Assembly: GCA_021827405.1 (NCBI GenBank)
Contig: JAKAVY010000002.1
Span: 12,464-76,463, forward strand
DNA length: 64,000 nucleotides
From: Thermoplasmata archaeon
GTDB taxonomy: Archaea; Thermoplasmatota; Thermoplasmata; Lutacidiplasmatales; UBA184
Direction: 5' to 3'
This document shows positions 13 to 35,561 of the stretch, in pieces. Every line of letters begins with the position of its first letter. Within the stretch, counting starts at the first letter, position 1. The notes below the pieces were generated by a model, which saw nothing but the letters and a program-made list of their open reading frames with translations, was not told the origin of the DNA and searched no databases. A program made the translations under genes and the position numbers.

Positions 13-564
13 TTGGAGTTCGTCCGGTCCCCTCGGGGGGTCCCCCCCGGGTTCCTCACACTGGCGAACCCTCCGGCCTACCAGCCTCCCCCGGCCTACC
101 CTGCTGCCCCCCCCACCCGGGCCGCATCCCCCGGGGGGAACCCCGCCCCACCCCCCCCGGTCGGTTACCTGAACCTCCCCCCTCCTCCCTTCCCGCCGGT
201 CATGGCGCCCCCGGCCCGGGCGCCTCCGCCCTCCTCCGTCCCGCTGGCCTTCACCGCCTCCCCGGCGGGAGGGGTGGTCCCGGGACCGGAACCGGCCCGG
301 GCGGAACCCCCGGGCCCGTTCCCCCCCGCGACAGAGGAGCCGCCCGGTACCGGGCCCGGAACGAGTGTGGAGACCGAGTCCCCTCCCGGTGAGGGAGCGG
401 GCGCGACCGCTGTCGACGCTCCGGCGCCGGCGGCCGACCCGGAGGCATCCCCGATGCCGGGGCAGGACGGAACCCCCCCGAAGCGTCGTTCCGGCGGCCA
501 GGGCCGACGGAAGGGGGGTCGGTCGACCCCCAAGGGCAACGGCGACGAGGGCGGGTCTCCCTGA
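13..564 (+). CDS. Pro/Ala/Gly-rich low-complexity ORF with no stop in frame back to the window edge; possibly the C-terminal tail of a gene that starts upstream of the window, or spurious
   Basis: Open frame from position 1. Extreme PPPA/PGPG composition with no recognisable domain. Confidence 0.15.
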   Translation: MEFVRSPRGVPPGFLTLANPPAYQPPPAYPAAPPTRAASPGGNPAPPPPVGYLNLPPPPFPPVMAPPARAPPPSSVPLAFTASPAGGVVPGPEPARAEPPGPFPPATEEPPGTGPGTSVETESPPGEGAGATAVDAPAPAADPEASPMPGQDGTPPKRRSGGQGRRKGGRSTPKGNGDEGGSP

Positions 565-618: not shown

Positions 619-1158
619 TCAGGCGGCCGGGTAGACGAGCTCTCCGCCCGGCTTCTGGTGGGACGGGAGCTTCTTGGTCGCCACGTTCTTGGTCTTCCAG
701 AAGATCTCGGCGAACTCCTGGACGCTCGCGACCAGTTCCTGGGCAGCCAGGAGGTTGACCTCCTGCCGTGCCTTGGACGCTTGTTTGAGGATCTTGAAGA
801 CCAGTTCGTGGACCTGGGGGAAGGCCTTCACCATGTCCGGGGTGAAGTAGTCGCCCCAGATCACCCGGATCTCGTGCTTGACCTTCTCCGCATGCTGCTC
901 CTTGACCGCGGTGTAGCGGGCGGCCTTGGAAGCGAACGTGTGCCGCTCCTCCGGCTTGGCGTCCGGCCCCGGGGCCGGGAGCTCGTTCAGGAGTTGGACC
1001 ATTCGGACCACGGTCAACGCCCCGATCTGGGCCTCGTGGGGGTCGTAGATGCCACAGGGGATGTCGCAGTGGGCGTAGGCCGTTTCCGGAGGGGCGAGGG
1101 CGTCCAGGAGCCGGTAGGACCGGTCCTTCAGGGTCTGCCAGGGCTTCATATCGACCAC
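619..1158 (-). CDS. sodN: Nickel-containing superoxide dismutase (Ni-SOD) precursor
   Basis: Ni-hook motif HCDIPCGIYDP after a 29-aa propeptide. Downstream VIWGDYFTP and EIFWKTK match Streptomyces SodN signatures (HCDLPCGVYDP, VLWSDYFKP, IFWETK). Confidence 0.9.
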   Translation of the reverse strand: MVDMKPWQTLKDRSYRLLDALAPPETAYAHCDIPCGIYDPHEAQIGALTVVRMVQLLNELPAPGPDAKPEERHTFASKAARYTAVKEQHAEKVKHEIRVIWGDYFTPDMVKAFPQVHELVFKILKQASKARQEVNLLAAQELVASVQEFAEIFWKTKNVATKKLPSHQKPGGELVYPAA

Positions 1159-1202
1159 GAAGGGAGCGGGGTTTAAAGCCCTGCGCGGGCCCCCGAAAGG
1201 GC

Positions 1203-1634
1203 ATGGCGCTGGACCCGGAAGGAGGTTCCTGGCACAGCCGGCTTCGTCGTCGGCTCCGCGCCCGGCGCTTCATGGTAGCGGACGAGAGCCTCGTCCCCCT
1301 GCTGCACCCCGGGGACAAGGTCCTCATGGACCCGGGGGCTTACCGCCGACGTGCGCCGCGCCCCGGCGAGTTCGTGGTCCTGGTGGACCCTCAGGGGCGG
1401 GTGCCGTGGCTCATCAAGCAGGTGGTGGCAGTCCGCGGGTCTTCCAAGGAGGGGAGGGGGGACGGGCCGCAGGTGGAGGTCCAGGGCACGGACCCCAGCC
1501 GGAGCCGGGACAGCCGCACGTTCGGGCCCGTGCCCCTCTCCAGCGTTCTGGGGGAGGCCTACTTCCGTTACTTCCCCCCGGCCCGCCGGGGGCCACTCGG
1601 ACCGGGGTCGGGGGCACCGGACCGGGACCCGTAG
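1203..1634 (+). CDS. sodX: S26 signal-peptidase-like Ni-SOD maturation protease (SodX-like); start uncertain (possibly the internal Met near 1272)
   Basis: Divergently adjacent to sodN. ADESLVPLL...GDKVL resembles the S26 GDSM...GD catalytic region. Confidence 0.55.
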   Translation: MALDPEGGSWHSRLRRRLRARRFMVADESLVPLLHPGDKVLMDPGAYRRRAPRPGEFVVLVDPQGRVPWLIKQVVAVRGSSKEGRGDGPQVEVQGTDPSRSRDSRTFGPVPLSSVLGEAYFRYFPPARRGPLGPGSGAPDRDP

Positions 1635-3125: not shown

Positions 3126-5192
3126 ATGATCCTGGCCGAGGCCCTTCTCCTGGGAGGGATGGTCCTCTTCGTAGGGGGCATGGTTGTCGCCTGGACCCGC
3201 CCGACCGCCGGTGGGGTACGCGGGTCGTTCCTCCTGGGCTCCCTTGGTTGTGCGGTCGCCGCCATCCAGGCCGTGGAGCTGCTCGTCACCGGGACGGCCC
3301 CCTCCCTGGCCATCGGGTTCCCGGGCACCACCACGGGCGTTCCCCTCCTGGCCCTCTCCATCCAGGAGGATCCCCTGTCCGCGTTCTTCCTGCTGGTGGT
3401 AGCGGTCAGCGGCGGCGCGGTCATGCTGGCCTCGGTGGGCTACGTCGACCGCTACGTCCACGAACGCCGGGGGAGGCTCGCCGGCTTGTGCAACCTGTTC
3501 CTCCTGAGCCTGGTGCTGGTCTGTACCGCCGGGACCGTCTTCCTCTTCCTGGTCGCCTGGGAGGGGATGACCCTGGTCTCCTTCCTCCTCGTGGTCCACG
3601 AGCACCACGAACCGGAGAACCGGCAGGCGGGTCTCCGGTACGTGATCATGAGCCACGCGGCCGCGACCGGTGTCATCGCCTCCCTCCTTCTCCTGGCCGT
3701 CGGGACCGGACAGGCCGGTTGGGGCGGCATCGCCCAGGGGACCGCCCGTCTGTCCCCCTGGGTACGGGACGGGGCCTTCCTCGCCGCCCTGGGAGGGTTC
3801 GGGACCAAGGCGGGGATGGTGCCGCTCCACGTCTGGCTGCCCGGCGCCCATCCGGCCGCTCCGAGCAACGTCTCGGCCCTCATGTCCGGCGTCATGGTCA
3901 AGATGGGGATCTTCGGCCTTCTCCGGGTGGTCCTGGACCTCCTGGGGGGTGGCCCCTCGTGGTGGGCCTATGCCCTCCTTGCCTTGGGGGCCCTTTCTGC
4001 CCTGGTGGGGGTCCTCTACGCCATCGTTCAGCACGACCTCAAACGCCTGCTGGCCTTCCATTCCATCGAGAACATCGGGATCATCCTGATGGGGATCGGA
4101 GCGGGGCTGCTCTTCCTGAACCTCGGGTATCCCGCCCTCGCTGCCTTGGCCTTGGCGGCCGCCCTGCTTCACACCTGGAACCACGCGTTGTTCAAGTCCC
4201 TCCTCTTCCTCGGGGCCGGGGCCGCCGTCGGCAGCACCGGGACGCGGGACCTGGAGCGGATGGGGGGGCTCATACGCCGGATGCCGGGGGTCGCCCTGGG
4301 TTTCTTGGTAGGCTCCCTGGCCATCTCGGCCCTCCCCCCGTTCAATGGCTTCGTGAGCGAATGGCTCCTCTTCCAGAGCTTCTTCGCGGCCTTCACCACA
4401 GGGTCCGCGGGGACCGAGATGACGTTCTCAGCCCTCGCCGCGGTGCTGGCCCTGACGAGTGGGCTCGCGGCCTACTGCTTCGTGAAGGCCTTCGGGATCA
4501 CCTTCCTGGCCCGTCCCCGCACTCCCGAGGCGGCGAAGGCGGCCCCCGCGCCCCGGACGCTCGTGGCCGGGATGGGGATCCTCGCGCTATTCTGCCTGGT
4601 GCTGGGAGTGGCGCCCATCCTCGCGTTGGACCTGGCGGGGGGCCCCCTCCGGGAGCTCACCGGGACCACGCTGGGTACGGGAGTCCCCTTTTCCGTGTTC
4701 TCGAGTCTGCCCGGCCCCGGTTCCGTATCCCTCCCCTTCGCCCCGGGCCTCCTCGCGCTCCTCTTGGCCGGTGTCCTCGTCGTGGCCTGGGCCTTCTGGC
4801 GTCTCCGGGGAGCACCGCAGGTCGCCCCGGGACCCACCTGGGATTGCGGGATGGATCGGCCGACCCCGCGCATGGAGTATACCGCGACCGGCTACGCCCA
4901 ACCGCTGACCAGGATCTTCCGGGATTTCTACCGTCCCCGTGACCATGAGGAACGGCGCCCGGCCCTCCAGCCGGGCTGGGGAGATCTCTCCCGGATCAAG
5001 CGCTGGGCCCGGGAGATCGAGGACCCGGTCTGGAGATGGTTCTACCTTCCCCTCTCGCAGGGGACCCTCCATCTGGCCCGAAGGACCAGCCGGCTCCAGT
5101 CGGGCCGGATCCACGCGTACCTGGCCTACATGTTCACCACTCTCGTCCTCTTGCTCCTGCTCGTCCGGGTCGTCTGGGGGGGTACCCCGTGA
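3126..5192 (+). CDS. Hydrogenase-4/complex-I antiporter-like membrane subunit (HyfB/NuoL/MrpA family)
   Basis: 688 aa, polytopic. Motifs WLPGAHPAAPSNVSALMSGVMVKMGIFGLLR and HDLKRLLAFHSIENIG are typical of NuoL/HyfB. Confidence 0.85.
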   Translation: MILAEALLLGGMVLFVGGMVVAWTRPTAGGVRGSFLLGSLGCAVAAIQAVELLVTGTAPSLAIGFPGTTTGVPLLALSIQEDPLSAFFLLVVAVSGGAVMLASVGYVDRYVHERRGRLAGLCNLFLLSLVLVCTAGTVFLFLVAWEGMTLVSFLLVVHEHHEPENRQAGLRYVIMSHAAATGVIASLLLLAVGTGQAGWGGIAQGTARLSPWVRDGAFLAALGGFGTKAGMVPLHVWLPGAHPAAPSNVSALMSGVMVKMGIFGLLRVVLDLLGGGPSWWAYALLALGALSALVGVLYAIVQHDLKRLLAFHSIENIGIILMGIGAGLLFLNLGYPALAALALAAALLHTWNHALFKSLLFLGAGAAVGSTGTRDLERMGGLIRRMPGVALGFLVGSLAISALPPFNGFVSEWLLFQSFFAAFTTGSAGTEMTFSALAAVLALTSGLAAYCFVKAFGITFLARPRTPEAAKAAPAPRTLVAGMGILALFCLVLGVAPILALDLAGGPLRELTGTTLGTGVPFSVFSSLPGPGSVSLPFAPGLLALLLAGVLVVAWAFWRLRGAPQVAPGPTWDCGMDRPTPRMEYTATGYAQPLTRIFRDFYRPRDHEERRPALQPGWGDLSRIKRWAREIEDPVWRWFYLPLSQGTLHLARRTSRLQSGRIHAYLAYMFTTLVLLLLLVRVVWGGTP

Positions 5193-6154
5193 GCCTGCGC
5201 GTGGTGGGGCCGATGGTCCTCCTCCTGCTGGAGTATGCGTTCGTTCTCGCCGTCGGCCCGCTGCTCCTTTCCCTCGGCCGCCGGGTGAAGGCCCGGAGCC
5301 AAGGCCGGACCGGCAGCCCCCTGCTTCAACCGTACCGGGACCTCTGGAAGCTCCTGGGAAAGGGCGCGATCTACTCTGACACCTCGTCCTGGTTGACGCG
5401 CTGGGCCCCCGCGGTCTCCTTCGCGGCCCTGCTGGCCGCGGTCCCGCTCATCCCCTGGCTCGTGCTTCCCGCCCCGTTGGGATACGTGGGGGACCTCATC
5501 GTCCTGGTCGGCCTCCTGGCCCTCTCCCGGTTCATCGTCGCCCTGGCCGCCTTGGATGCGGGGAGCACCTTCGGTGGAATGGGCTCGAGCCGGGACATGT
5601 GGATGGGGGCGCTGGCCGAGCCGGTCTTCCTCCTCGTGATCTTCGCTTTCGGGGGGCCCGCGGGATCCACCCAGGCTGACGTGATCGCCGCGCGCGGCGT
5701 GGCGCTCGGTCTCGGGTACCTGAGCCCTCCGCTCCTGCTCGCCGTGGTGGCCTACGTGCTCCTGCTGCTCGTGGAGACGGGTCGGCTGCCCGTGGACAAC
5801 CCTGCGACCCACTTGGAGCTCACCATGGTCCATGAGGCCCAGACCCTGGAATACACTGGGCGGGACCTCGCGTTGCTGGAGTGGGGTCAGGGCCTCAAGC
5901 TCGCCCTCATGCTCGGGTTGCTCGCCGCCCTGGCCGTTCCCTGGGGGCTCGCGACCACCTGGGGCCTCCTCTTCCTCCTGGCCGCGCTGGCCGTGACCAG
6001 TCTCAAGCTGCTCGGGGGTCATCTCTTCGTGAGCGGCCTGGAGACCCGACTGGCCAAGTGGCGGCTCTTTCGGGTCCCGGATCTCACGACCCTCGCCGTG
6101 GTCCTGGCCTTCGGGTCCCTGGCGCTGACCTACGTCGTGGGGGGGGGCGCGTGA
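5189..6154 (+). CDS. NuoH/HycD/HyfC-like membrane subunit
   Basis: PLLQPYRDLWKLLGK motif (NuoH/HycD signature). GTG start overlaps the upstream stop (GTGA at 5189-5192). Confidence 0.8.
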   Translation: MSLRVVGPMVLLLLEYAFVLAVGPLLLSLGRRVKARSQGRTGSPLLQPYRDLWKLLGKGAIYSDTSSWLTRWAPAVSFAALLAAVPLIPWLVLPAPLGYVGDLIVLVGLLALSRFIVALAALDAGSTFGGMGSSRDMWMGALAEPVFLLVIFAFGGPAGSTQADVIAARGVALGLGYLSPPLLLAVVAYVLLLLVETGRLPVDNPATHLELTMVHEAQTLEYTGRDLALLEWGQGLKLALMLGLLAALAVPWGLATTWGLLFLLAALAVTSLKLLGGHLFVSGLETRLAKWRLFRVPDLTTLAVVLAFGSLALTYVVGGGA

Positions 6155-6807
6155 CGTCGTTCGCGACCCTGGCGTTGGACCTCGCGGCGGCTTCCGCGCT
6201 GGTCACGGCCTGGATCTGCCTGGTCCACCGGAGGATCACGGCGCTCGTGGACACCTACGCCGTCCAGTCCGCCTCGCTGGCGGTCACCGAAGGCCTCATT
6301 GCCTACCTCTACTCCGCTCCGGACCTGTACCTCCTGGCGCTCCTTACCTTCGTCGTGAACGCCCTGGTCCTCCCCGGGGTCCTGCGCCGGGTGGTCCGGG
6401 CCCTGCGGGTGAACCGCATGGTGAACACCTATGCCTCCGTGCGCGTGAGCGCCCTCGCTGGCCTGGGCCTGCTTCTCTTGGCCATCCTGGTGGTCGGACC
6501 CGTCGTCCCGTATGCGGAGGTCTCCTCCGCCGGTCTCCTGCCCATCGCCACGGCCATCCTGCTCATCGGCTTCTTCCTGCTCATCAGCCGGGAGAAGGCG
6601 GTCACCCAGGTAGTGGGCCTCCTGGTGATGAACAACGGCATCCTCCTCGCCGGGATCGCGCTTACCTACGGACTCGGCCTCTTCGTGGAACTGGCCCTGG
6701 CGGCGAACCTCCTGGTGCTGGCCATCGTGGCGCGGATCTTCCTCGCACGCATGAAGGAGTCCTTCGACCACGTAGACGTCGACGCGCTGCGCTCGCTCGA
6801 GGGATGA
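6151..6807 (+). CDS. HyfE-like small membrane subunit (NuoK-related)
   Basis: 218 aa with about 6-7 TM helices, in the position and size of HyfE. GTGA overlap at 6151-6154. Confidence 0.65.
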   Translation: MTSFATLALDLAAASALVTAWICLVHRRITALVDTYAVQSASLAVTEGLIAYLYSAPDLYLLALLTFVVNALVLPGVLRRVVRALRVNRMVNTYASVRVSALAGLGLLLLAILVVGPVVPYAEVSSAGLLPIATAILLIGFFLLISREKAVTQVVGLLVMNNGILLAGIALTYGLGLFVELALAANLLVLAIVARIFLARMKESFDHVDVDALRSLEG

Positions 6808-8297
6808 TCCGGATGATCGAAGGCCCCTTCTGGATGCTGGCCCTGCTTCTGACCCCGCTGGTGGGAGGGGGACTGGTCTGGGTCTCCCGGACCCGGGCCC
6901 AGCTCAATGCCTCGGCGGCGGCCACGGGGGCGGCCTCCTTCGGGTTCCTGCTCTTTGTTTTGGACCAGGTCCTTGCCACTGGACCCACTTTCGCGGTCGG
7001 GGGTCTCCTTTACGTCGACGCCCTCTCGGGGCTGCTCCTGCTCGTCATCACGCTCGTGGGATTGGCGAGCCTGCTCTATTCCATCGACTACCTGGGCCGC
7101 AGCGGAAGCCCGCACGAGGCCTCCGTTCCTCGCCTTCGCCGATACTACGGACTGGTTCTTCTCTTCCTCTTCACCATGTACCTCGTTTCAGAGGCCAACA
7201 ACCTGGGGCTGCTGTGGACCGCCCTGGAGGGGACCACCCTTGTCTCCGCGCTCATGGTCGGCTATTACCAGACCCGCCGGGCCCTGGAGGCATCGTGGAA
7301 GTACCTCATCCTCTGCAGCGCCGGACTCGCCTTCGCCCTGTTCGGGACTCTCCTGCTCTACCTGGCGTCGATCCGGGCCCTGGGATCCGGGGCCTCCGGG
7401 CTCGATTGGACCACCCTCGTCCAGGCCGGCGGACATCTGGACCCGGGGCTGGTCCAACTGGCCTTGGTCTTCCTTTTCGTGGGCTACGGGACCAAGGCGG
7501 GGCTGGCCCCGCTCCACAACTGGCTCCCGGACGCCCACTCGGAGGCCCCCACCCCGGTCTCGGCCCTGCTCTCAGGCGCGCTCTTGAACTGCGCCATGTA
7601 CGCGTTGATCCGGGTAGACGCCATCACGTTAAGGATCCCGGGATTCACGTTGACCCATTGGCTCCTGCTGATCTTCGGTTTGAGCTCGGTCTTCGTCGCC
7701 GCCTTGTTCATCCTCGTCCAGCACGACCTCAAGCGTCTGCTCGCCTACCACTCCGTGGAGCACATGGGGATCATCACCCTAGGGCTCGCCTTTGGTGGGT
7801 TCCTGGGCGTCTTCGGCGCCCTGTATCACCTGCTCAACCATGCGGTCACCAAGGCCGCGCTCTTCCTCATTGGCGGAAACCTCGCCCTCCAGGCCCAGAC
7901 GAAGGACCTCGAACAGATCCAGGGTGCGCTCGCCGCCGTGCCCGCCACCGCGATCGCGCTCCTGCTCGGAGGCCTCGCCCTGGGGGGGGTCCCACCCTTC
8001 TCCGTCTTTGCCAGCGAGTTCGTCATCCTCACCGCGGGGTTCACCGATGGGAATGCCTGGGGGGCGATCCTCCTTCTCGTGGCCCTGGCCATCGTTTTCG
8101 CCGGGCTCATTGGCCATTTGGTCCACATGCTGTTCGGGGGGAACCCCTCCCGGCACTATCTCCCCGGACTGCGCCGTGCGGTGGGGGCTTCGATCGGCGT
8201 AGGGCTCCTTATGGCCCTGGCGCTTGGGCTGGGACTGTTCCTGCCCAACCCGCTCTCCCAGCTCTTGCACGGGGCCGTCCAGGCGGTGAACGGATGA
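6804..8297 (+). CDS. Antiporter-like membrane subunit (HyfF/NuoM/NuoN family)
   Basis: WLPDAHSEAPTPVSALLSGALLNCAMYALIR and HDLKRLLAYHSVEHMG motifs. ATGA overlap at 6804-6807. Confidence 0.85.
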   Translation: MIRMIEGPFWMLALLLTPLVGGGLVWVSRTRAQLNASAAATGAASFGFLLFVLDQVLATGPTFAVGGLLYVDALSGLLLLVITLVGLASLLYSIDYLGRSGSPHEASVPRLRRYYGLVLLFLFTMYLVSEANNLGLLWTALEGTTLVSALMVGYYQTRRALEASWKYLILCSAGLAFALFGTLLLYLASIRALGSGASGLDWTTLVQAGGHLDPGLVQLALVFLFVGYGTKAGLAPLHNWLPDAHSEAPTPVSALLSGALLNCAMYALIRVDAITLRIPGFTLTHWLLLIFGLSSVFVAALFILVQHDLKRLLAYHSVEHMGIITLGLAFGGFLGVFGALYHLLNHAVTKAALFLIGGNLALQAQTKDLEQIQGALAAVPATAIALLLGGLALGGVPPFSVFASEFVILTAGFTDGNAWGAILLLVALAIVFAGLIGHLVHMLFGGNPSRHYLPGLRRAVGASIGVGLLMALALGLGLFLPNPLSQLLHGAVQAVNG

Positions 8298-9940
8298 GCC
8301 CGCCTGCCCAGGAAGGAGAGGAGACCCCCCTTCCCCCTGTGGGGACCCGCCCCCCGCTCCCGGTGGACCGGAACCGTCCGGACCGGGTCGAGGAAGAGAG
8401 GACCCTGGGCGCGTTAGGAGCCGGCCCGGTGACCTGGTTGGAGGGCGAAGGCCTGTGGGCCCTGTCCGTAGACCCCGAGCGATGGCCGGCCATCTGCCGT
8501 TGCATATCCGAGGTGATGCACCACCCGCTCTCCACCCTCTTCGGCGAGGAGGCCCACGGGGGGATCCGGCTGCACGCGCTGTTCCTCGGCCACGACCCCA
8601 CTCCCGGGGTCCATGTCCGCTGTCCGCTGCACCCCGGCGTACTCTCAGCTCCTTCCCTCGCAGCCACCATCCCCTTCGTGGCCCCCTTCGAACGGGAGGT
8701 GGCGGAGATGTTCGGTGTCACCTTCCTAGGGGCCATGGACCGTCGACCGCTTCTCCTGCACGAGAGACACTCGGCCCCACCCCTGCGAAAAGGCCCTCCG
8801 GCCACCCCCACGGGTGAGCTGGAACCCTACGTCTTCCCGCCGGTGGAAGGGGAAGGGGTCTACGAGATCCCCGTGGGTCCGGTACATGCCGGCGTCATCG
8901 AGCCCGGCCACTTCCGTTTCCAGGCCGTGGGGGAGGAGATCCTCGATCTCGAGGTCCGCCTCGGGTACACCCACAAGGGCACGGAGCGCCTCTTCGAGGG
9001 GCAGCCGGTGGCCCGGGGCACCCTCTGGGCGGAGTCCATCTCCGGGGACATGTCCGTTGCGGGGGGAGTCGCCTACGCGCACGCGGCCGAACGGGCCCTG
9101 GACTCCCGGGTTCCGGCGGTCACGGAGGCCGCGCGCGGGCTCCTGCTGGAGCTGGAACGCATCGCGTTCCTCTGCGGAGACGTTGCGGGGATCTCCCTGG
9201 ATGTGGGCTACGCGGTGGGGGCGGCACGGGCCAACCGCCTCCGGGAACGGACCTACGCCGGGCTCCGGTCCCTCACCGGCTCCCGCCTGGGGCGCGCCAT
9301 CGTGGGAGTGGGCGGATTCCGCCGGCCACTCGTGCTGGGCGACCCGGCCGAACTGATCCTGACCCTTCGGGAGACCTCGGCCCGTATCCAGGCCCTCCGG
9401 GACCATCTTCTGGACAAGTCTTCGGTGGTGGACCGGCTCCAGGGAACCGGGATCATTCACCGGTGGACCGCCGAGCTGCTGCATTTCCTCGGACCTACCG
9501 CCCGGGCCTCCGGGCTCAGGATCGACCTCAGGGTGGACCGTCCGTACGGGCCGTACCGAGACGTGGAGGTCCATGTCCCGCGCGGTCTCCAGGGGGATGT
9601 GCAGGATCGCCTCACCGTCAAGGTCGACGAGGTGGTGGAGGCTTGCCGCCTTTCCGAGACCTTCCTAGGCCGCCTCGGGCAAGGGATCCCCCCGGCGCCT
9701 GCCACGCCTCCGCCCCCCGGGGAACCGCGCGAGGGACTCGGCTGGGTGGAATCCCCGCGCGGCGAGTTCCTCGTCTACCTCGCGCTCGCTCCTGACGGTA
9801 CCTTGGGACGGGTCCATGTCCGGGACCCCTCGTTCCTCACGTGGCCCGCCATCGAACAGGCCGTCCGAGGGAACATCGTCCCGGACTTTCCCCTGTGCAA
9901 CAAGAGCCTGAACCTCTCGTATTCGGGGTACGACCGATGA
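8294..9940 (+). CDS. NuoC-NuoD fusion / [NiFe]-hydrogenase large-subunit homolog (HycE/HyfG-like) lacking the NiFe-binding cysteines (Ehr-type)
   Basis: N-terminal NuoC-like domain (EREVAEMFGVTFLGAMDRRPLLL). NuoD/HycE-like core (PVGPVHAGVIEPGHFRF). The L1 motif RxCGxCxxxH is replaced by SISGDMSVAGG. The C-terminal DPCxxCxxR is replaced by DFPLCNKSLNLSYSGYDR. ATGA overlap at 8294-8297. The 908-aa track ORF is an upstream read-through. Confidence 0.85.
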   Translation: MSPPAQEGEETPLPPVGTRPPLPVDRNRPDRVEEERTLGALGAGPVTWLEGEGLWALSVDPERWPAICRCISEVMHHPLSTLFGEEAHGGIRLHALFLGHDPTPGVHVRCPLHPGVLSAPSLAATIPFVAPFEREVAEMFGVTFLGAMDRRPLLLHERHSAPPLRKGPPATPTGELEPYVFPPVEGEGVYEIPVGPVHAGVIEPGHFRFQAVGEEILDLEVRLGYTHKGTERLFEGQPVARGTLWAESISGDMSVAGGVAYAHAAERALDSRVPAVTEAARGLLLELERIAFLCGDVAGISLDVGYAVGAARANRLRERTYAGLRSLTGSRLGRAIVGVGGFRRPLVLGDPAELILTLRETSARIQALRDHLLDKSSVVDRLQGTGIIHRWTAELLHFLGPTARASGLRIDLRVDRPYGPYRDVEVHVPRGLQGDVQDRLTVKVDEVVEACRLSETFLGRLGQGIPPAPATPPPPGEPREGLGWVESPRGEFLVYLALAPDGTLGRVHVRDPSFLTWPAIEQAVRGNIVPDFPLCNKSLNLSYSGYDR

Positions 9941-10803
9941 CGTCCCGCCCGGACCTGCGTACGGTTGTCTCTGCGGCGGCTCCCGCCGGCCGTTCGGCAC
10001 GGGATGAGAGCCAGACCCTCCGCTACCCCCTCGGACCCCTACCGGTCCTGCCACGTCCTTGGCGGACCCCCCGACACGATGCGGGGCGCTGTGACGGCAC
10101 CGGGGCCTGCGCGACGGCATGCCCCACCGGGGCTCTCGAGGTCACCAGCACCGGTGGCCAGGACCGGGTGACGCTGGACTACGGGAAGTGCCTCTTCTGC
10201 TCACTCTGCGTGGATGCGTGTCCCTCCGGGGCCATGACCTCCACCCCGTTCGAGGAGCTCTCCGTCCGCCGACGGGGGGACCTGATCGCTGTCCACCCGT
10301 CCGTTGCGTCGCTCAACCCCTCCGACGAGCTCAGGCGCGAGGTGGCCACAAGTGTGGGCCGCCTCTTCGCGGGGTCCCTATCGATCCGGGCGGTGGACGC
10401 GGGCAGTTGCAATGGCTGTGAGGTCGAGGTGGGAGCGCTCCTTTGGCCCCGGTACGACCTGGAACGGCTGGGGATCCACCTGGTGGCTTCGCCGCGACAC
10501 GCGGATGCCCTCTTGGTCACGGGCCCGGTCACGCGCAACATGCGCCAGGCACTGGAGAAGACCTATCGTGCCGTCCCTCCTCCTCGATTTGTGCTGGCCG
10601 TCGGAGCGTGCGGGATCTCCGGCGGGCCCTTCGCCGGTTCGGCCGAGGTAGAGGGGGGGGTGGACCGGGTACTTCCCGTCGAGGTCTACATCCCGGGGTG
10701 CCCTCCCTCGCCGGTGGCTCTGCTCCACGGGTTGTGGCTCGCCCTCGGCAAGGTCGAACAACGGATGGTCCGGGGGGAGTTCTCCTCAGGGATCCCACCG
10801 TAA
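9937..10803 (+). CDS. Fusion of 2x[4Fe-4S] ferredoxin (NuoI/HycF-like) and NuoB/HycG-like small subunit
   Basis: KCLFCSLCVDACP (canonical) plus an atypical RCDGTGACATACP. Then the NuoB signatures SCNGCE, GACGISGGPF and YIPGCPP. ATGA overlap at 9937-9940. Confidence 0.85.
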   Translation: MTSRPDLRTVVSAAAPAGRSARDESQTLRYPLGPLPVLPRPWRTPRHDAGRCDGTGACATACPTGALEVTSTGGQDRVTLDYGKCLFCSLCVDACPSGAMTSTPFEELSVRRRGDLIAVHPSVASLNPSDELRREVATSVGRLFAGSLSIRAVDAGSCNGCEVEVGALLWPRYDLERLGIHLVASPRHADALLVTGPVTRNMRQALEKTYRAVPPPRFVLAVGACGISGGPFAGSAEVEGGVDRVLPVEVYIPGCPPSPVALLHGLWLALGKVEQRMVRGEFSSGIPP

Positions 10804-17969: not shown

Positions 17970-18311
17970 GTTCGCTCCATCCCGGAGGCGTTCACCGGAT
18001 ACACAAGGGCGCCGCAACGGTTAGGAGGGAGGGAGCCCGGGGCCGGGACGTTGCTAAGGAGCCGGCGGCAAAGCCATTCCCTGGCAACGTGGGAGACAGG
18101 GAAGGACTTCGGCGGCCCCGGCCCCGCCCTGAGCCTCTCGCGAAGGCCCAGGGGCCCAGTTCTCCCCCGGGCCGCGACTGGTGAATGGCCGACCCCGAAG
18201 GGCATGAACGAAGTGACTGCAGGGTCCCCCCGGTGAGGTATGGGCATTGCCCGATAGGGCAAGCCCGCTCTCCGTGCCCAGCTTAATGCTCTATCAAGAC
18301 CTCTCCGTCCC

Positions 18312-18701
18312 ATGACCGAACTGAGGAAGCTCTGGGTAGGGTCCATCGTGGTGGAATGCAAGAACTTCTCTGAGATGTTCACCTTCTGGAAAGCGGCCCT
18401 AGGGTACGAGGCCCGCGATCCGCCCTCGGAGGACTGGGTGGTGCTTCACGACCCCGAGGGGAAGGGGCCGAACATCTCCCTCCAGAAGGTCGGGGAGGGT
18501 CCAGGCCCCGACTACCGCTTCCACTTCGATCTGTATTCCTCCGCCCCGGAAGAGGAGGGCCAGAGGTTAGTGAGGCTCGGGGCCAGGATGCTGGAGCCTT
18601 TCCAGGAAGGACGCGACTTTGCGACCCTCCAGGACCCCGACGGGAACCCTTCCGATGTGATCGACACCCGGGGCTTCGCCTTCGGCCAGCGCGCAGCGTG
18701 A
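18312..18701 (+). CDS. VOC/glyoxalase-family protein
   Basis: 129 aa. Glyoxalase-like beta-alpha-beta-beta-beta pattern with conserved H/E positions (RFHFDLY, ATLQDPDGN). Confidence 0.65.
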   Translation: MTELRKLWVGSIVVECKNFSEMFTFWKAALGYEARDPPSEDWVVLHDPEGKGPNISLQKVGEGPGPDYRFHFDLYSSAPEEEGQRLVRLGARMLEPFQEGRDFATLQDPDGNPSDVIDTRGFAFGQRAA

Positions 18702-19099
18702 GCCCGGTTTGGGGGCTCTTGACCAAGGAGTCAGCCCCTCCGTTCTTCGGTCGGAAGCGCAACGACACGACCCGGTGGAAGTCCCGGAGGAGGAGGGTGA
18801 GGCACGCGAAGCGATGGGCCCGATGGGTGCCCCGCTCCTCCTTCGTCTTGACCGGCTGATTCCGCCTGGCGTCCGGGGTCTGACCATGGTAAGGCAGGTC
18901 GGGGTCGTCGATGGCGAAGTCGACCGGCTCGCCAGGAAGGATGGGTCAGACATGGCGGGGAAGGGCCAGGGTGATGGCGCGCTGGATCTTCCCGAGTGGA
19001 GGTGGCCGAGGACGTACGGGCGGTCCTGTCGGACCGACCACTCCGATACTGGGAGCGCGGGGCAAGGCCGGGGGAGCGCGTGGCGGACGCCCGGAGGAG

Positions 19100-19640
19100 A
19101 AGGTCCGCGTTGGCCACGCCTCCAAAGGAACTCGGAGGCGACGGGCGTTAGTCGTCTTCGTGGACGAGAGCGGTCTCTCGCCATCCCCTACCGTGCGAAG
19201 ACCTGGGTAACGGTGGGGAAGACCCCGGTGTTGGTGCATCAGGGGCGATGGCCGAAGGTCTCCGCGATCGGAGGGGGCACGTGTTCGCCTCCACCTGAAG
19301 GTGCGGAAGGGGTCCGTCCGCGGGTCTCAGGTGATCGCGTTCCTGAAGCGCCCCCTCCTGCACATCCGGAGGAAGCCGGTCATACTCCTCTGGGACAAGG
19401 GGCCGCACCCCGGTCCAAACTGGTGCGTGCCTTCCCGCGCCAGCCGCGTCCACTGGAGGTGCACCGACATCCCGGGCACAGCCCCGAACTGAACCCAGAG
19501 GAGTGGTTCTGGCCTCATCTCCAGACGCATGAACTGGCCAGCTACGTCCCCCATGCCCTGACAGAGTCGATGAAAGGGGTCTGGCTGGCGGTGATGAGAG
19601 CGCGGGACCACCCGCGTCTCTTGCGACCGTTCGCCCACGT
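19100..19640 (+). mobile_element. IS630/Tc1-mariner-family transposase gene remnant (pseudogene, at least 3 frameshifts, N-terminus missing)
   Basis: DDE motifs split over frames: ALVVFVDESGLSPSPTVRR, then (frame shift) VTVGKTPVLV, then KPVILLWDKGPHP (second D), then (frame shift) HSPELNPEEWFWPHLQ. No intact ORF. Confidence 0.7.
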
Positions 19641-19860
19641 CGGAGTCAGGGATCGCCGATGCGGATCGTCAAGGGACCTCATGTGAAGCCACAGCGGTGG
19701 GGTTCAAGGAAATTACTTGACGGTCAAGAATACCACTGTGCTTGCCTTACAAGCTTAACCCCACCCCTCGAGAGGTGCTTATCGCGGGGGAAGGACGGTT
19801 GGACGGACACGACCTGTGCCCAAAGACGGCTCCGGTGTCCAAACAGGGGGCAGACCTTCT

Positions 19861-20406
19861 TCAAGACCGAAATGTGAGGTAGGCTCCAGAAGGGAAGGAA
19901 ACAGACTCGGAATCAGAACTTGGGTTGAAGAGAATGAATACCCATTTTGAACTTCCACCGGCTATCCATGGAGTAGAATTGGCGAAAAATACGGCGCCAA
20001 GACTCCTATTAAAGTCACTAAGGTGGCTCAATGGTGACGAAATTATGGTCTGGTACTCCGACATTCTAAAAATCGCAAAGGAAATGTTCTGATATTGCCC
20101 TGGAAAGTCGACGGAAAGATTGAGCTGGCCTTGGGCGGAGGAGGGCGTGGTGAAGTTCACCGTCAGCAGCCCTCCCTGAGCGAGCGGCAGGGTGACTCCC
20201 GACGGCAGGAGACCTACCGTACACTCCGCAGCCGAAGAGACCGAATAGCACGTCCAGTCCTGAGATGGGGCGGTGGGCGGGGGCGGCCGGGTCAATTCGA
20301 AGATGAGGGTAGAGCCTGTGAACACTAGGGCAGCCACCAGGACGGCAATCACGACCCGCCCCCGGCCTAATCGCCTATCCTGCCGAACTGGGGGATCCAC
20401 TTCCAC
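19861..20406 (-). CDS. Hypothetical N-terminally anchored secreted protein in a low-GC segment
   Basis: N-terminal TM helix VVIAVLVAALVFTGSTLIF, then a Ser/Thr-rich ectodomain with N-x-S/T sequons. Local GC is about 50% against about 70% in the flanks. Confidence 0.4.
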   Translation of the reverse strand: MEVDPPVRQDRRLGRGRVVIAVLVAALVFTGSTLIFELTRPPPPTAPSQDWTCYSVSSAAECTVGLLPSGVTLPLAQGGLLTVNFTTPSSAQGQLNLSVDFPGQYQNISFAIFRMSEYQTIISSPLSHLSDFNRSLGAVFFANSTPWIAGGSSKWVFILFNPSSDSESVSFPSGAYLTFRS

Positions 20407-20822
20407 CCCTCCAAGGAAGCCTAAGGGTCAGGTCGACTGCGGGACCTGGGGCGATGAAACAACAAGGATCCTGATAAGAGCAGCGTTGGGTTCCTGACAG
20501 AAATAGAACAACTGCACTGATACCTGTCCGCCCCATACACGCCATATGTCCTTCGAACTTATACATCGGCCTGAGGCGAGTTAAGGAAGATACTAGACGG
20601 TTACTGTCGCTTCAGGCTTTGAGGCAAGACAACTACAGGCCCTCTCGCAGTCGGAGAAGCTGAGTCCGGGTCAGTGGGATGGGTCACCGCTCCACCTCGG
20701 ACGTCCCCGGGTGGATCTCCCGGATGACTTTTGCGAGTTCGCAAAACTCCGGACCCACTTTTGCGAACTCACATGGGAGACGGGGAAGAGGCTCTTATGT
20801 CCCCCCGGGGGTCTGCCTCATC

Positions 20823-21200
20823 ATGTTCCGAAAGGTGGACTGCGTGCGTCTCCACGTCGGGGACCTGGACTCTGCACTTGCGTTCTACTCCAGGAAGCTT
20901 GGGCACCCGCTCCTCTGGAAAGACGGCACCACAGCGGCGGGCCTCCAGATGGGAGGCTCCGGCTCCGAGCTCGTGCTCGTCTCTGGAGAGAGCCCACCGG
21001 AGACCGACCTCAAAGTAGACTCCGTGGAAAGGAGCATCCGGCAGTTCGTGGAGGCAGGCGGGAGGGTCGTGGAACCTCCCTTCGACATCAAGATCGGACG
21101 GTGCGCTGTGGTCCAAGACCCATGGGGGAATCGCCTGGTCCTCCTGGACTCGAGCAAGGGGCTCTTGAAGACCGATGCGGAAGGGAACGTTGTTGGATAG
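20823..21200 (+). CDS. VOC/glyoxalase-family protein
   Basis: MFRKVDCVRLHVGDLDSALAFY...VVQDPWGNRLVLLD is a classic glyoxalase/bleomycin-resistance fold signature. The upstream part of the track ORF was rejected. Confidence 0.7.
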   Translation: MFRKVDCVRLHVGDLDSALAFYSRKLGHPLLWKDGTTAAGLQMGGSGSELVLVSGESPPETDLKVDSVERSIRQFVEAGGRVVEPPFDIKIGRCAVVQDPWGNRLVLLDSSKGLLKTDAEGNVVG

Positions 21201-21747
21201 GCCATCGGCCAGGCGGCGAGGGCGGTCTAGGCCTCGAACCCCTCCAACTAACGGTCAGGGGACCCCTCACGTCAGCCATCGGACGAAGGGCTAGGGAACC
21301 TAGCCTCTCTCCGGTTGTCCCATAAGATTGGACCTCGCTCCTACGCTCGTATCCGAGTGCGGTCGTGAGACTCCCGCCGGGGGATCCCGGCACTTTTGGT
21401 GGCGGCCAATGGGTTGGCCTTCGAATACACCGTGCGGGAAGAGCTTGCGGCGGCCCCCTCCCCAAGTCACGGTAATGATCTCCGATGAGATCGCTGGAGC
21501 CGTTCGGGTGATCGGATGGCCCGAACGACATGCCAGATTCCACACGGCCAGGACCACCCCGGGGAGATTGGGAGCTTCCTGACACATCTGGACTTTCAGC
21601 CCGCGTCTGGCGGCTGAAAGACGCCCGGAGGGCGTTCGGAGAGAGCGGGGACCCTTGCGACCTCCGAGGGCAGGATGAGGAGGGGTCCACCACGACCTTC
21701 AAGCTCCCAAGCGCGCCTCTCCGATTGGGCTAACGGAGCGGTCTCCG

Positions 21748-22278
21748 ATGGTTCGAAATCAGGGTCGGGTCACACGGTTCGTCGTGATGGCCATGCTCCA
21801 GGCGGCCCGGGCGGAGAGGCTCGGGCTTACACGAGAGTCCGCCTACTCATGGGGGTTGAACCGAGCGATCTTCTATGCGGCGGCCAAGCGTGGGTTCAAG
21901 ACCGGGGAACCGGGAGAGGGGGGAGGCGACAAGAAGCCTCCCGGCCACATCTATCACCTGGGGGAGGATGAGGCGTTCCTAGACCCGGACGCCAAGGAGT
22001 TGCGGTTTACAATTGGGGGAGAGACGCAGACACCGGAACGTTTCGAGCAGCAAGTCATTGCCCGGTTCGTGACGAAGGAAAACTTCCACAAGGCGTGGGA
22101 GGAGGCCCAGCAGGTCGTGGCGAGGTTCGATGGTGCCACTCTCGGCTCACCCCACCGGTTTTACGCCGAGGTCTACCATCCCCGGCGGGACGAGCTCTCG
22201 GACCGGTGGACGAAGGCATACAACCCGGCCCCTCCGTCGAGAAGGGGTACCCGGGTAGAACCGGGGAGCGGAGCCTGA
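21748..22278 (+). CDS. Hypothetical protein
   Basis: 176-aa ORF with ordinary composition and no recognised motif. Confidence 0.35.
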   Translation: MVRNQGRVTRFVVMAMLQAARAERLGLTRESAYSWGLNRAIFYAAAKRGFKTGEPGEGGGDKKPPGHIYHLGEDEAFLDPDAKELRFTIGGETQTPERFEQQVIARFVTKENFHKAWEEAQQVVARFDGATLGSPHRFYAEVYHPRRDELSDRWTKAYNPAPPSRRGTRVEPGSGA

Positions 22279-22645
22279 GGCGACCGACCTCGACCCATGA
22301 ACGACCGGTCGAGGGGGCTCTCTTGGAAGCACCTGTTGTGGCGAGAATCTCCCTTCACGGGGCCGGCGAAGATGTTCCTGGTGCCCATCGAGAGCCAGTC
22401 CAGGGAGGGCCCCCGTCCGTTAAGGACCTCATTCGATCTTCCTCGACCCGGCAGGTCACGGCCGGGCTCGGCGCGGCCGCCTCCAAGGGTACCTCGCGAG
22501 AAGGAAGCATCGTGCTCCCCTCGCGAGGGTATCTCTGGAAGCAACCCTGAACCTGGCCTCTAGGCGTGGACCCAGGTTTCTCTCAGAAAGGTTCCGCTAC
22601 GTGGAGGACTACGGTAACGCTGGCGTCAGGGTGCAGGGAGGAAGT

Positions 22646-22719
22646 AGCGGGGCATGGATTTGAACCATGGATCTACGGGTTATGAGCCCGTCGGGATGAC
22701 CTGACTACCCTACCCCGCT
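22646..22719 (-). tRNA. Archaeal initiator tRNA-Met (anticodon CAU), no encoded CCA
   Basis: Reverse complement AGCGGGGTAGGGTAGTCAGGTCATCCCGACGGGCTCATAACCCGTAGATCCATGGTTCAAATCCATGCCCCGCT. A1:U72 pair. Anticodon stem ACGGG/CCCGT with 3 consecutive G:C pairs. CAT anticodon. T-arm CATGG-TTCAAAT-CCATG. Confidence 0.85.
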
Positions 22720-32458: not shown

Positions 32459-32998
32459 TCAGGGCTTGTGCCCGCGGGCTCGCCGAACCGGTCGTGCCGG
32501 GGGACGGTTCAGGATCCAGACCATCTGGGGCGGCTTCCGGTCCATCTGCCAGAACAGGGCGATGATCTCCCCCAGGTGATGCGCCTCCTCAAAGGTCGTC
32601 TGCCAGAGGGCGTCCTCCACCGTGTAGTACCCCGGCATCCAGGGCGCTCGCACCCGGCGCTGAAGTTCCTCGTCGGTGAGGTCCCGGAGGGTCTTCGTCA
32701 CCATCTTCCAGACCCGGGCCGACTCCCGGCGGACGGCCGCATGGGTGTGAGGGGGAGGCTCCGCGCTCCGGGCCTGCCGGAGGGCCTGGAGCTCCCGAGC
32801 CCGGTCGTGGAGGATGTAGCCCAGCCACCCCTCGTACACCCCGAGGATGTGCAGCAAGGTCCCCGTCAAGGACTCGTGCCCCGCCCCCCGGGGCCGGGAC
32901 GCCTCCTCCCAGGGCAGTTCCCCCACCGCCTTCAGGAAACGCTCGAAGACCCGGTGATTGTAGGCGAAGAGCCTCCGGTAGTCCTCGACGTCGGCCAT
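32459..32998 (-). CDS. DinB/YfiT-family (DinB_2) metal-dependent four-helix-bundle protein
   Basis: HILGVYEGW ... EEAHHLGEI histidine triad pattern. Confidence 0.65.
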   Translation of the reverse strand: MADVEDYRRLFAYNHRVFERFLKAVGELPWEEASRPRGAGHESLTGTLLHILGVYEGWLGYILHDRARELQALRQARSAEPPPHTHAAVRRESARVWKMVTKTLRDLTDEELQRRVRAPWMPGYYTVEDALWQTTFEEAHHLGEIIALFWQMDRKPPQMVWILNRPPARPVRRARGHKP

Positions 32999-35450: not shown

Positions 35451-35561
35451 GCCCCCCGGGTGGGGGAATGGCCTCAAGAGGATTGAGGTCCCTTGCGCCC
35501 CCGCCGTGCCCGAAGGGTCCTCCCGCTCCCCCGGGGCCTGGGGCCCGGACAGCCGTCCCTC

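Follow-up and report, generated by a model that had tools for sequence, protein, structure and literature searches.

A nickel superoxide dismutase gene and a divergent S26 peptidase gene in a soil Thermoplasmata archaeon: a probably native, long-established pair

The window (the whole stretch of DNA that was analysed, 64,000 nucleotides) carries two divergently oriented genes separated by a 53-bp spacer: sodN, for a nickel superoxide dismutase (Ni-SOD) pre-protein, and sodX, for an S26-family peptidase (Table 1). A preliminary description had recognized here a sodN-sodX module with a propeptide, and that reading is borne out by the profile matches, the Ni-hook motif and the peptidase described below.

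Table 1. Features of the sodN-sodX locus (positions in the window)
Feature	Position	Strand	Remarks
sodN	619..1149	minus	Ni superoxide dismutase pre-protein, 176 aa; stop codon 619-621
SodN helical-bundle body (predicted)	622..1038	minus	rest of the 150-aa mature protein
Ni-hook HCDIPCGIYDP	1039..1071	minus	residues 27-37 of the 176-aa protein; His1 codon 1069-1071
Propeptide MKPWQTLKDRSYRLLDALAPPETAYA	1072..1149	minus	26 aa, putatively removed to expose His1
Palindromic TATA-like box TTTAAA	1172..1177		within the sodN-sodX spacer; position only
sodX	1203..1634	plus	soluble S26-family Ser/Lys peptidase, 143 aa; presumed SodN maturation protease
sodX key codons	Ser29 1287-1289; Lys72 1416-1418; DSR box 1509-1517	plus	sequence conservation

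The sodN open reading frame (619-1158, minus strand) matches the Pfam model PF09055 (Sod_Ni) with an E-value of 1.2e-43 and 149.1 bits (cut-off 25), and the TIGR02753 sodN model with 151.5 bits (cut-off 90). In a phmmer comparison (E ~5e-20) the mature protein aligns over its full length with the Streptomyces NiSOD structures 1T6U and 1Q0D: query residues 30-158 correspond to residues 1-116, with one 13-residue insertion, and the window's HCDIPCGIYDP pairs with HCDLPCGVYDP of 1T6U. Full-length homology to a solved NiSOD predicts that SodN is a four-helix-bundle subunit. (A technical note on the start codon: the frame is open as far as a GTG at 1158, which was considered and set aside; the start is instead the conserved ATG at 1149, because an ATG stands exactly 26 codons upstream of His1 in 78 of 81 related SodN sequences and because a separate gene call on a 99.9%-identical contig, L087, also makes SodN a protein of 176 aa.)

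The Ni-hook, HCDIPCGIYDPH, follows immediately upon the 26-residue propeptide. Its eleven residues HCDIPCGIYDP are unchanged in all 81 archaeal SodN sequences, 80 of which have His at the twelfth position. The ligands of nickel in the Streptomyces enzyme are His1, Cys2 and Cys6; nickel binding and superoxide dismutation are accordingly the predicted functions of the window's SodN. The propeptide, whose length is 26 aa in 78 loci, has no hydrophobic core and is therefore no secretion signal. Across the 81 sequences the putative cleavage site presents Ala at P1 (80), Tyr at P2 (73) and either Val (71) or Ala (10) at P3, an Ala-X-Ala-like pattern of the S26 type that suggests proteolytic removal of the propeptide; the Streptomyces SodN cleavage site likewise has Ala at P1 and Val at P3.

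SodX matches Pfam Peptidase_S26 (PF10502) with 41.5 bits (cut-off 22.9). Its best NCBIfam match is the Ni-SOD maturation protease model TIGR02754, with a score (50.2 bits) below the curated cut-off of 63.25, so that the assignment of SodX as the maturase rests on context rather than on the model; all 42 archaeal SodX homologues nevertheless match TIGR02754 (best E 8e-21). Ser29, Lys72 and Asp103-Ser104-Arg105 are invariant across these 42 proteins, which thus retain the Ser/Lys dyad together with box E (GDxxxxSxDSR), and Ser29 and Lys72 align with the catalytic Ser36 and Lys77 of Staphylococcus aureus SpsB. An AF2 model of SodX built on an alignment of 14 sequences from the protein search (pLDDT 78.5, pTM 0.73) retrieves type I signal peptidases as 23 of its 24 top Foldseek matches in the PDB, the top 14 among them, at probability 1.00 and TMq 0.5-0.59; a signal-peptidase (S26/LexA-like) fold is thus predicted. 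The bacterial SPase I model TIGR02227 is matched by 42 of the 42 archaeal homologues (best E 3e-25), and the archaeal signal peptidase model by only 14 of them: judged by its sequence, SodX is a bacterial-type Ser/Lys peptidase. Its N-terminus, read directly from the sequence, is highly charged and has no hydrophobic membrane anchor; secreted proteins at the membrane should therefore be out of its reach.

The spacer between the two genes holds a palindromic TTTAAA, at a distance of 22 nt from the ATG of sodN and 25 nt from that of sodX. When the upstream regions of 78 related loci are aligned, a TATA-like box with the consensus CCGGCAtCcTTATCC occupies -28 to -23 relative to the sodN ATG; in 54 of these 78 relatives the sodX start codon is only 2 nt from that box, the spacer there being 30 nt long. 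It is the position of the box that suggests promoter function, and TTTAAA is proposed as an archaeal promoter element that serves both genes, whose divergent transcripts would be leaderless. The stronger proposition, that one palindromic TATA box drives both sodN and sodX as leaderless transcripts from a compact bidirectional promoter, is rather unlikely. With a spacer of 30 nt, the initiation complexes for a protease and for its substrate would meet on the same DNA and have to share it or compete for it; such a bidirectional promoter would fix the ratio of enzyme to maturase, and SodX would be a Ser/Lys S26 peptidase of bacterial type that has been brought under archaeal transcription signals. 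Two tRNAs are the only RNA genes that Rfam and tRNA scans find in the window, and these scans turn up nothing close to the sodN-sodX locus.

The host is a high-GC soil Thermoplasmata archaeon, in or near the Lutacidiplasmatales, and the contig is archaeal, as the preliminary description supposed. Genes for Nop5, Dph2, PAC2, NAC, HMG-CoA reductase and HVO_A0261/FilR1 regulators mark it as such; the nearest relatives of the contig are soil Thermoplasmata MAGs; and a public contig, with 99.9% identity along 4.5 kb, runs past sodN into the archaeal genes for PAN, ribosomal protein L10e and Usp. GC content is even along the window (0.61-0.73), and the genome value of ~69% agrees with that of the Lutacidiplasmatales of PMC9287336. 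Measured against 36 window genes, sodN has a codon-adaptation z of +1.5 (GC3 0.915) and sodX one of -0.05: the codon usage of both is native to the host. Genes for nickel uptake, NikR and Hyp proteins are absent from the ~55 ORFs of the window, which leaves the nickel supply unaccounted for within it.

How widespread is the pair? A scan of species-representative genomes finds a relative in 242, and Thermoplasmata MAGs make up 78 of the best 80 of these; among the best 120 protein clusters, every named match is to Thermoplasmata or Euryarchaeota. By tblastn, sodX adjoins sodN in 78 of 80 related loci, divergently in 77, and the two loci without an adjacent sodX are both cut off by contig ends. 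A word-indexed homologue search for SodX yields just 13 proteins and is uninformative about distribution. The window's SodN is 61-91% identical to those of other Thermoplasmata and, over the mature region, ~40% identical to its best actinobacterial match. Most related loci share a ModA/WtpA-like ABC transporter and RadA as neighbours; no conserved nickel transporter was found beside the pair in these loci, the conserved neighbour being an SBP_bac_11 (molybdate/tungstate-type) ABC system. These neighbourhoods were compared as clusters of stop-to-stop ORFs of the loci, and only Pfam-supported clusters were counted. The stop-to-stop ORF clusters include many antisense ORFs, as is expected at 70% GC.

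In a distance tree of SodN over 149 columns, which gives moderate support and does not resolve the sister of the archaeal clade, archaeal SodN forms an exclusive group in ~82% of 500 neighbour-joining bootstraps once 15 partial sequences are removed; the 27% obtained with truncated and frameshifted metagenomic representatives included is misleadingly low. P0124, a divergent member at 48% identity, has synteny in common with the archaeal clade (FAD-linked oxidase, PurH). The nearest identified outgroups are bacterial, namely the Chloroflexota protein P0121 (55% identity) and P0122; of the ten nearest representatives of 50%-identity clusters, one is taxon-labelled (Chloroflexota) and two others were assigned to a domain by their neighbour genes. 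The bacterial outgroups, together with the bacterial type of the Ser/Lys peptidase SodX, make a bacterial origin of the pair plausible. Any such transfer was probably ancient, and its direction would have been from Bacteria to these archaea.

These findings bear on the claim, made in the preliminary description, that the rarity of Ni-SOD in Archaea points to horizontal acquisition by this genome. Ni-SOD in Archaea is indeed seldom mentioned in papers. That this archaeon recently took up a sodN-sodX cassette from an actinobacterium or a cyanobacterium is also in keeping with an overwhelmingly bacterial Ni-SOD family, with the bacterial type of SodX and the bacterial outgroups, and with a local gene neighbourhood in the window that is unlike that of most relatives. 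Yet codon usage and GC3 are host-typical or better; the promoter appears to be of archaeal type; at least 78 species-level genomes of Thermoplasmata carry the pair, its hook invariant and its propeptide length fixed; identity to the best actinobacterial match falls far short of that to Thermoplasmata; and PMC9287336 already records Ni-SOD in Lutacidiplasmatales, its reconciliation putting the gain at a deep node. The preliminary description had itself named the grouping of SodN with a vertically inherited archaeal clade as the outcome that would overturn its proposal, and that is the grouping found. Recent horizontal gain is already largely refuted and, as an account of this locus, highly improbable. 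Less probable still, to the point of being negligible, is an assembly or binning artefact in which the sodN-sodX end of the contig would be bacterial DNA fused to archaeal DNA: the pair does lie within 1.7 kb of the window end, and the label of two of the 80 related contigs says no more than 'bacterium', but the independent 99.9%-identical contig continues from sodN into archaeal genes, archaeal markers are present on the other side of the pair as well, composition is uniform, and the same pair stands on Thermoplasmata contigs of up to 1.8-2.0 Mb.

Might the S26-like protein be a general peptidase, a peptidase dedicated to something else, or an inactive relic, with SodN processed by another enzyme? 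The subthreshold TIGR02754 score leaves room for that, as does the existence of sodN-bearing cyanobacteria without sodX (PMC8346466), in which other routes may operate; against it stand the near-universal adjacency and divergence of the two genes, the invariance of the dyad and DSR box, the charged and anchorless N-terminus, which argues against a membrane role on secreted proteins, P1 and P3 residues in SodN that suit S26 specificity, and the match of all 42 archaeal homologues to the maturase model. The suggestion is quite unlikely, though somewhat less so than a functional coupling of the pair with its neighbour in the window, a nickel-free hydrogenase-like complex, through nickel economy or superoxide protection. 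The preliminary description had noted that the hydrogenase-type nickel site of this neighbour is missing, and it is: in an alignment to E. coli HycE (7z0s_E), none of the four NiFe-binding cysteines is kept in the HycE-like large subunit (8300-9940), with VCGIC replaced by ISGDM and DPCYSC by NLSYSG, so that the cysteine signature of group 4 [NiFe] hydrogenases (RxCGxC ... DPCxxC) is absent. Judged by these residues, the operon works like an Ehr/Mbx/complex-I-type module and not as a hydrogenase. Pair and complex are 1.5 kb apart with only a PhoU-like regulator between them, and two near-identical contigs, L087 and L088, show the same order; these come from the same population, however, and are not independent observations. 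The genes lie on different strands in separate transcription units, homologues of HyfB, HyfF, the large and small subunits and the PhoU-like protein occur in none of the 80 related loci (recovered flanks of up to 6 kb, shorter at contig ends), and most of those loci have the ABC transporter and RadA instead. Since no other locus with a readable flank shows the adjacency, the suggested link to the nickel-free complex is not supported, its probability is very small, and the juxtaposition reads as a lineage-specific accident of gene order.

What is left, and very probably correct, is a native Ni-SOD module, matured by SodX, gained a single time from Bacteria in the distant past and vertically inherited thereafter, with no link to the Ehr-like complex. 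In outline, the short spacer would contain an archaeal TATA-type promoter region from which leaderless mRNAs of both sodN and sodX start. SodN would be translated as an inactive 176-aa precursor, which SodX, a cytoplasmic Ser/Lys peptidase, would cut after Ala26 (...A-Y-A/H-C-D), making His27 the new N-terminus (His1). The hook would then fold around nickel with the free amine and imidazole of His1, the backbone amide of Cys2 and the thiolates of Cys2 and Cys6 as ligands, and the metal would shuttle between Ni(II) and Ni(III) as it dismutates superoxide, just as it does in Streptomyces NiSOD. Most likely sodN and sodX arrived together, in a deep ancestor of the Thermoplasmatota. Gene identities, conservation of motif and dyad, adjacency, distribution and native composition were computed directly, as was the peptidase fold of the SodX model; cleavage, nickel binding, activity, promoter use and the direction of the ancient transfer are what these observations suggest.

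One can regard the pair as ordinary, because it is old, widespread and already published in this group of soil archaea. It provides no evidence of recent inter-domain transfer, and its importance beyond correct annotation is small. The gene content predicts that soil Thermoplasmata with an aerobic or facultative way of life depend on a Ni-SOD that has its own activating protease, which agrees with the published view of the Lutacidiplasmatales as oxygen-tolerant heterotrophs.

Of the known systems, the sodN-sodX-sodT genes of marine cyanobacteria resemble the window in combining Ni-SOD with a maturation peptidase, and a SodX-type peptidase is needed there for Ni-SOD activity (PMC8346466, PMC4284471). 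The cyanobacterial hook, HCDGPCGVYDPA, differs from the window's HCDIPCGIYDP, and the cyanobacterial genes co-localise with the Ni permease gene sodT; the window has no Ni permease, and none is conserved beside the archaeal genes.

The SodN proteins of Streptomyces coelicolor and S. seoulensis (SCO5254; 1T6U, 1Q0D) carry an H-C-D-x-P-C-G-x-Y-D-P hook behind a cleaved propeptide, as the window's SodN does. At ~40% identity, the mature proteins differ in length (150 aa in the window, 117 aa in Streptomyces), the window's having a longer loop between helices 1 and 2 and a C-terminal extension of ~20 aa. The Streptomyces propeptide has 14 aa, as against 26 in the window. The promoter is of archaeal type and putatively leaderless in the window, and bacterial and regulated by Nur and an sRNA in Streptomyces. 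The cognate S26 peptidase gene of Streptomyces, SodX (SCO5255), is adjacent to sodN (PMC3919588), again as in the window.

Closer still, at 54-55% identity, are the SodN proteins of Chloroflexota and related uncultured bacteria (P0121, P0122), the nearest that were identified in Bacteria. Their hook is likewise HCDIPCGIYDP, their mature part is 149-150 aa long, and a divergent S26 gene lies directly upstream of sodN. Their propeptides are slightly shorter (22-23 aa, compared with 26 in the archaeal proteins) and their context is bacterial, near an L1-L10-L7/L12 operon and RadC; P0122 adjoins L7/L12 and RadC.

The closest precedent concerns this very gene family in this archaeal lineage: Sheridan et al. 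(2022, Nat Commun 13:4110; PMC9287336) found Ni-SOD in Lutacidiplasmatales, so that a Ni-SOD in these archaea is already known, and they inferred its gain in a deep Thermoplasmatota ancestor. In the MAGs SubAcS15-31, SubAcS13-64 and UBA184 (loci L053, L077 and L038), SodN is 61-68% identical to the window's, and hook, propeptide length and divergent sodX are as in the window. The window represents a different species (its closest genome is TL1-5.bin109, with a SodN 91% identical), and its neighbourhood is rearranged. The passages of the study that were searched give only the SOD (K00518) and its inferred deep-node gain and are silent on sodX, a word absent from the main text, as well as on the propeptide and the promoter. 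Relative to those passages, the modest additions made here are the invariant hook, the fixed 26-aa propeptide with its V-Y-A site, a bacterial-type Ser/Lys protease that travels with sodN, and a very short promoter region that the two genes appear to share.

The genome is archaeal and the contig sound. Nop5/Nop56, the diphthamide synthase Dph2, PAC2 and NAC, archaeal markers all, are encoded in the window, as are HMG-CoA reductase and HVO_A0261/FilR1-type regulators; L087, a near-identical public contig of the same population, runs on leftward beyond the window, where it encodes Usp, ribosomal L10e and a PAN-type proteasomal ATPase, and there are thus archaeal genes on both sides of sodN. The archaeal host named in the preliminary description is thereby confirmed. 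G+C (69.5% for the window) is even along its length, at 0.61-0.73.

(Three side observations: the stretch 18000-22700, with G+C of 0.61-0.64 against the window mean of 0.695, holds an ORF that looks transposase-like by eye (18709-19686), glyoxalase-family ORFs (18312-18701 and 20679-21200) and unannotated ORFs, ends beside a tRNA-Met (22644-22719, minus strand), and may be a mobile element, integrated or degraded. Scattered oxidative-stress and thiol genes, all on the minus strand (AhpC/TSA peroxiredoxin, 34899-35585; OsmC-like, 40656-41105; DinB/mycothiol-S-transferase-like, 32459-32998), agree with an oxygen-exposed lifestyle. ORFs 60372-62924 (plus strand, 850 aa) and 51103-52125 (minus strand, 340 aa) have a strong coding signal (GC3 about 0.89) and matched no Pfam family.)

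Principal features of the window
Feature	Coordinates	Strand	Remarks
sodN ORF	619-1158	minus	open reading frame, 179 codons
TATA-like element TTTAAA	1172-1177		-28 to -23 from sodN ATG; window counterpart of conserved upstream element
sodX	1203-1634	plus	143-aa protein; Pfam Peptidase_S26, 41.5 bits (cut-off 22.9)
Hyf/Ehr-like operon	3126-10803	plus	HyfB-, NuoH/HyfC- and HyfF-like membrane subunits, HycE-like large subunit, small-subunit/ferredoxin fusion
HycE-like large subunit	8300-9940	plus	E 4e-46 against E. coli HycE (7z0s_E)
Nop5/Nop56	33824-34858		archaeal marker
Dph2	46380-47465		archaeal marker
NAC	48037-48432		archaeal marker
PAC2	50266-51039		archaeal marker

The sodN-sodX module of the preliminary description is real, its two genes recognizable far above chance: the sodN ORF matches Pfam Sod_Ni at E 1.2e-43 (149 bits; cut-off 25) and the NCBIfam equivalog TIGR02753 at 151.5 bits (cut-off 90), and its neighbor encodes an S26 Ser/Lys peptidase. 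The Streptomyces Ni-SOD structures 1T6U and 1Q0D align across the full length of mature SodN (E about 5e-20), beginning precisely at the Ni-hook (HCDIPCGIYDP versus HCDLPCGVYDP). Where does the precursor begin? The hook was located in 80 related loci from species-representative genomes and in the window; it is unchanged in 81/81 sequences, and in 78 of the 81, the window among them, an ATG lies exactly 26 codons 5' of His1. The true start is therefore ATG 1149, not GTG 1158, specifying a precursor of 176 aa, of which 26 aa are propeptide and 150 aa mature protein; on L087 (99.87% identical over 4.5 kb), where the gene was called independently, it likewise has 176 aa. S26 peptidases recognize small residues at -1 and -3, and the residues preceding the predicted cut fit that pattern: P1 is Ala (80/81) and P3 is Val (71/81) or Ala (10/81), with Tyr (73/81) at P2 between them. 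The propeptide reads as charged along its whole length and has no hydrophobic core, which rules it out as a secretion signal. (At one Thermoplasmata locus, L051, the sodX homologue lies upstream of sodN on the same strand and the propeptide is 20 instead of 26 aa long.)

Context and chemistry together justify the name SodX for what is presumed to be the SodN maturase; the top NCBIfam family is the nickel-type superoxide dismutase maturation protease TIGR02754, at 50.2 bits, under the curated equivalog cut-off of 63.25. Across 42 aligned archaeal homologues, all from beside sodN, Ser29, Pro32, Asp38, Lys72, Asp103-Ser104-Arg105, Phe107, Gly108, Gly117 and Pro125 are unchanged. Pairwise alignment with S. 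aureus SpsB matches Ser29 to the catalytic serine of its GESM motif (GEAM in one deposited variant) and Lys72 to the catalytic lysine of YVKRV. Of the 24 top PDB matches to the AlphaFold2 model (mean pLDDT 78.5, pTM 0.73), 23 are type I signal peptidases, and these include all of the top 14; E. coli LepB, S. aureus SpsB and S. pyogenes SipA are among them (probability 1.00, TMq 0.5-0.59). The N-terminus, MALDPEGGSWHSRLRRRLRARR..., is strongly charged and lacks a membrane anchor. Bacterial signal peptidases use a Ser/Lys pair, while the catalytic lysine is absent from archaeal and eukaryotic ones; SodX is accordingly of bacterial type. Each of the 42 homologues matches TIGR02754 (best E 8e-21) as well as TIGR02227, the model of bacterial signal peptidases (best E 3e-25); the archaeal signal-peptidase model is matched by just 14 of them, and more weakly.

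When the 78 upstream regions are lined up at the ATG of sodN, a conserved CCGGCAtCcTTATCC emerges, with its TTAT core at -28 to -25. The interval -28 to -23 is the usual position of the archaeal TATA box relative to the transcription start; a box at that distance from the ATG implies that sodN mRNA is probably leaderless. In the window the 53-nt spacer (1150-1202) has a single palindromic TTTAAA midway, 22 nt away from the ATG of sodN and 25 nt from that of sodX, which, to judge by its position, could serve both genes. In 54 of the 78 relatives the spacer is only 30 nt: the opposite-strand start codon of sodX (ATG 33, TTG 13, GTG 8, CTG 0) occupies -31 to -33 from the sodN ATG, 2 nt from the TATA-like box, and no AT-rich element of sodX's own is obvious in these 54 loci.

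How did the module come to be in this archaeon? The preliminary description suggested horizontal acquisition, but SodN sits in a large, vertically inherited archaeal clade, an outcome that the description itself had named as refuting its idea. A protein search yielded 6613 homologue clusters; the best 120 of these are 66-92% identical, and their source-named members are all "Thermoplasmata" or "Euryarchaeota archaeon". Scanning one genome per species found 242 species-level genomes with a relative, and 78 of the best 80 loci belong to Thermoplasmata MAGs of soil, peat or comparable origin, with UBA184 and two genomes of the Lutacidiplasmatales study included. SodX homologues adjoin sodN in 78 of the 80 (divergently in 77); the other two loci are cut by contig ends. 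A neighbor-joining (distance) analysis covered 68 mature sequences of full length; the 20 Thermoplasmata sampled are exclusive, alone or with the homologue P0124, in about 82% of 500 bootstraps. P0124 (48% identity), whose MAG stems from the study that also supplied locus L018, shares the oxidase and PurH neighbors of the others, and the archaeal clade is therefore deep. Nor does anything mark the two genes as foreign among their neighbors: GC3 is 0.915 for sodN and 0.875 for sodX (window mean 0.858), and codon-adaptation z against 36 window genes is +1.5 and -0.05. The nearest outgroups identifiable are bacterial: P0121 (annotated Chloroflexota, 55% identity) and P0122, which lies beside RadC and the L1-L10-L7/L12 operon of bacteria and likewise has the divergent S26 gene. 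Since a bacterial-type Ser/Lys protease travels with sodN, the outgroups are bacterial, and a published reconciliation (cited below) agrees, the best reading, on a distance tree that singles out no sister group for the archaeal clade, is that sodN-sodX probably had an ancient bacterial origin as a unit.

The preliminary description, which as a whole is partly supported, also found Ni-SOD intriguing beside the adjacent nickel-free complex. Its reading of the complex holds: relative to E. coli HycE, ISGDM replaces VCGIC and NLSYSG replaces DPCYSC, all four NiFe-binding cysteines giving way to Ser/Met and Ser/Gly. Since these are gone, the complex is a hydrogenase-derived module (energy-converting-hydrogenase-related or Mbx/complex-I type) and not a hydrogenase. 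A functional link is unsupported, because the arrangement is common only to L087 and L088, a second near-identical contig, and thus to one population; with the PhoU-like regulator and five operon subunits as queries, tblastn gave no match at the 80 related loci in the flank recovered there, up to 6 kb and shorter at contig ends. A different neighborhood is common to most relatives (L002-L080), in the intervals of roughly -1.2 to -5 kb and +3.5 to +5.5 kb around sodN. In 59 loci an ABC transporter of SBP_bac_11 (molybdate/tungstate) type comes directly after sodX, in 45 RadA stands about 4.8 kb away, and the sodN side carries an FAD-linked oxidase, a fusion of MutY with Nudix, and PurH. The window lacks this neighborhood, and in its lineage the sodX side is occupied by the PhoU-like regulator with the Ehr-like operon: a lineage-specific gene order. 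Among some 55 window ORFs searched against Pfam there is no nickel transporter, NikR or Hyp gene. (The PhoU-domain protein, at 1769-2908 on the minus strand between sodX and the operon and called as 379 aa on L087, resembles archaeal PhoU-type regulators. Convergent with sodN is a proline-rich low-complexity ORF at 13-564, plus strand, without a Pfam match; its counterparts are at 1656-2204 in L001, the closest genome, where the ORF is 65% identical, and at 8628-9362 in L087, called as a 244-aa gene.)

The archaeal module is already known. Sheridan et al. (2022) list nickel superoxide dismutase (K00518) among the stress genes of Lutacidiplasmatales, whose genomes are about 69% GC, and their supplement has the family gained at the ancestor of Thermoplasmatota other than Thermoplasmatales and Acidiprofundales (PMC9287336). 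Ni-SOD looks rare in Archaea from the literature because the broad surveys screened bacteria only (PMC8346466). In Streptomyces and cyanobacteria it is established that sodN and sodX lie side by side and that activity requires the peptidase (PMC3919588, PMC8346466, PMC4284471).
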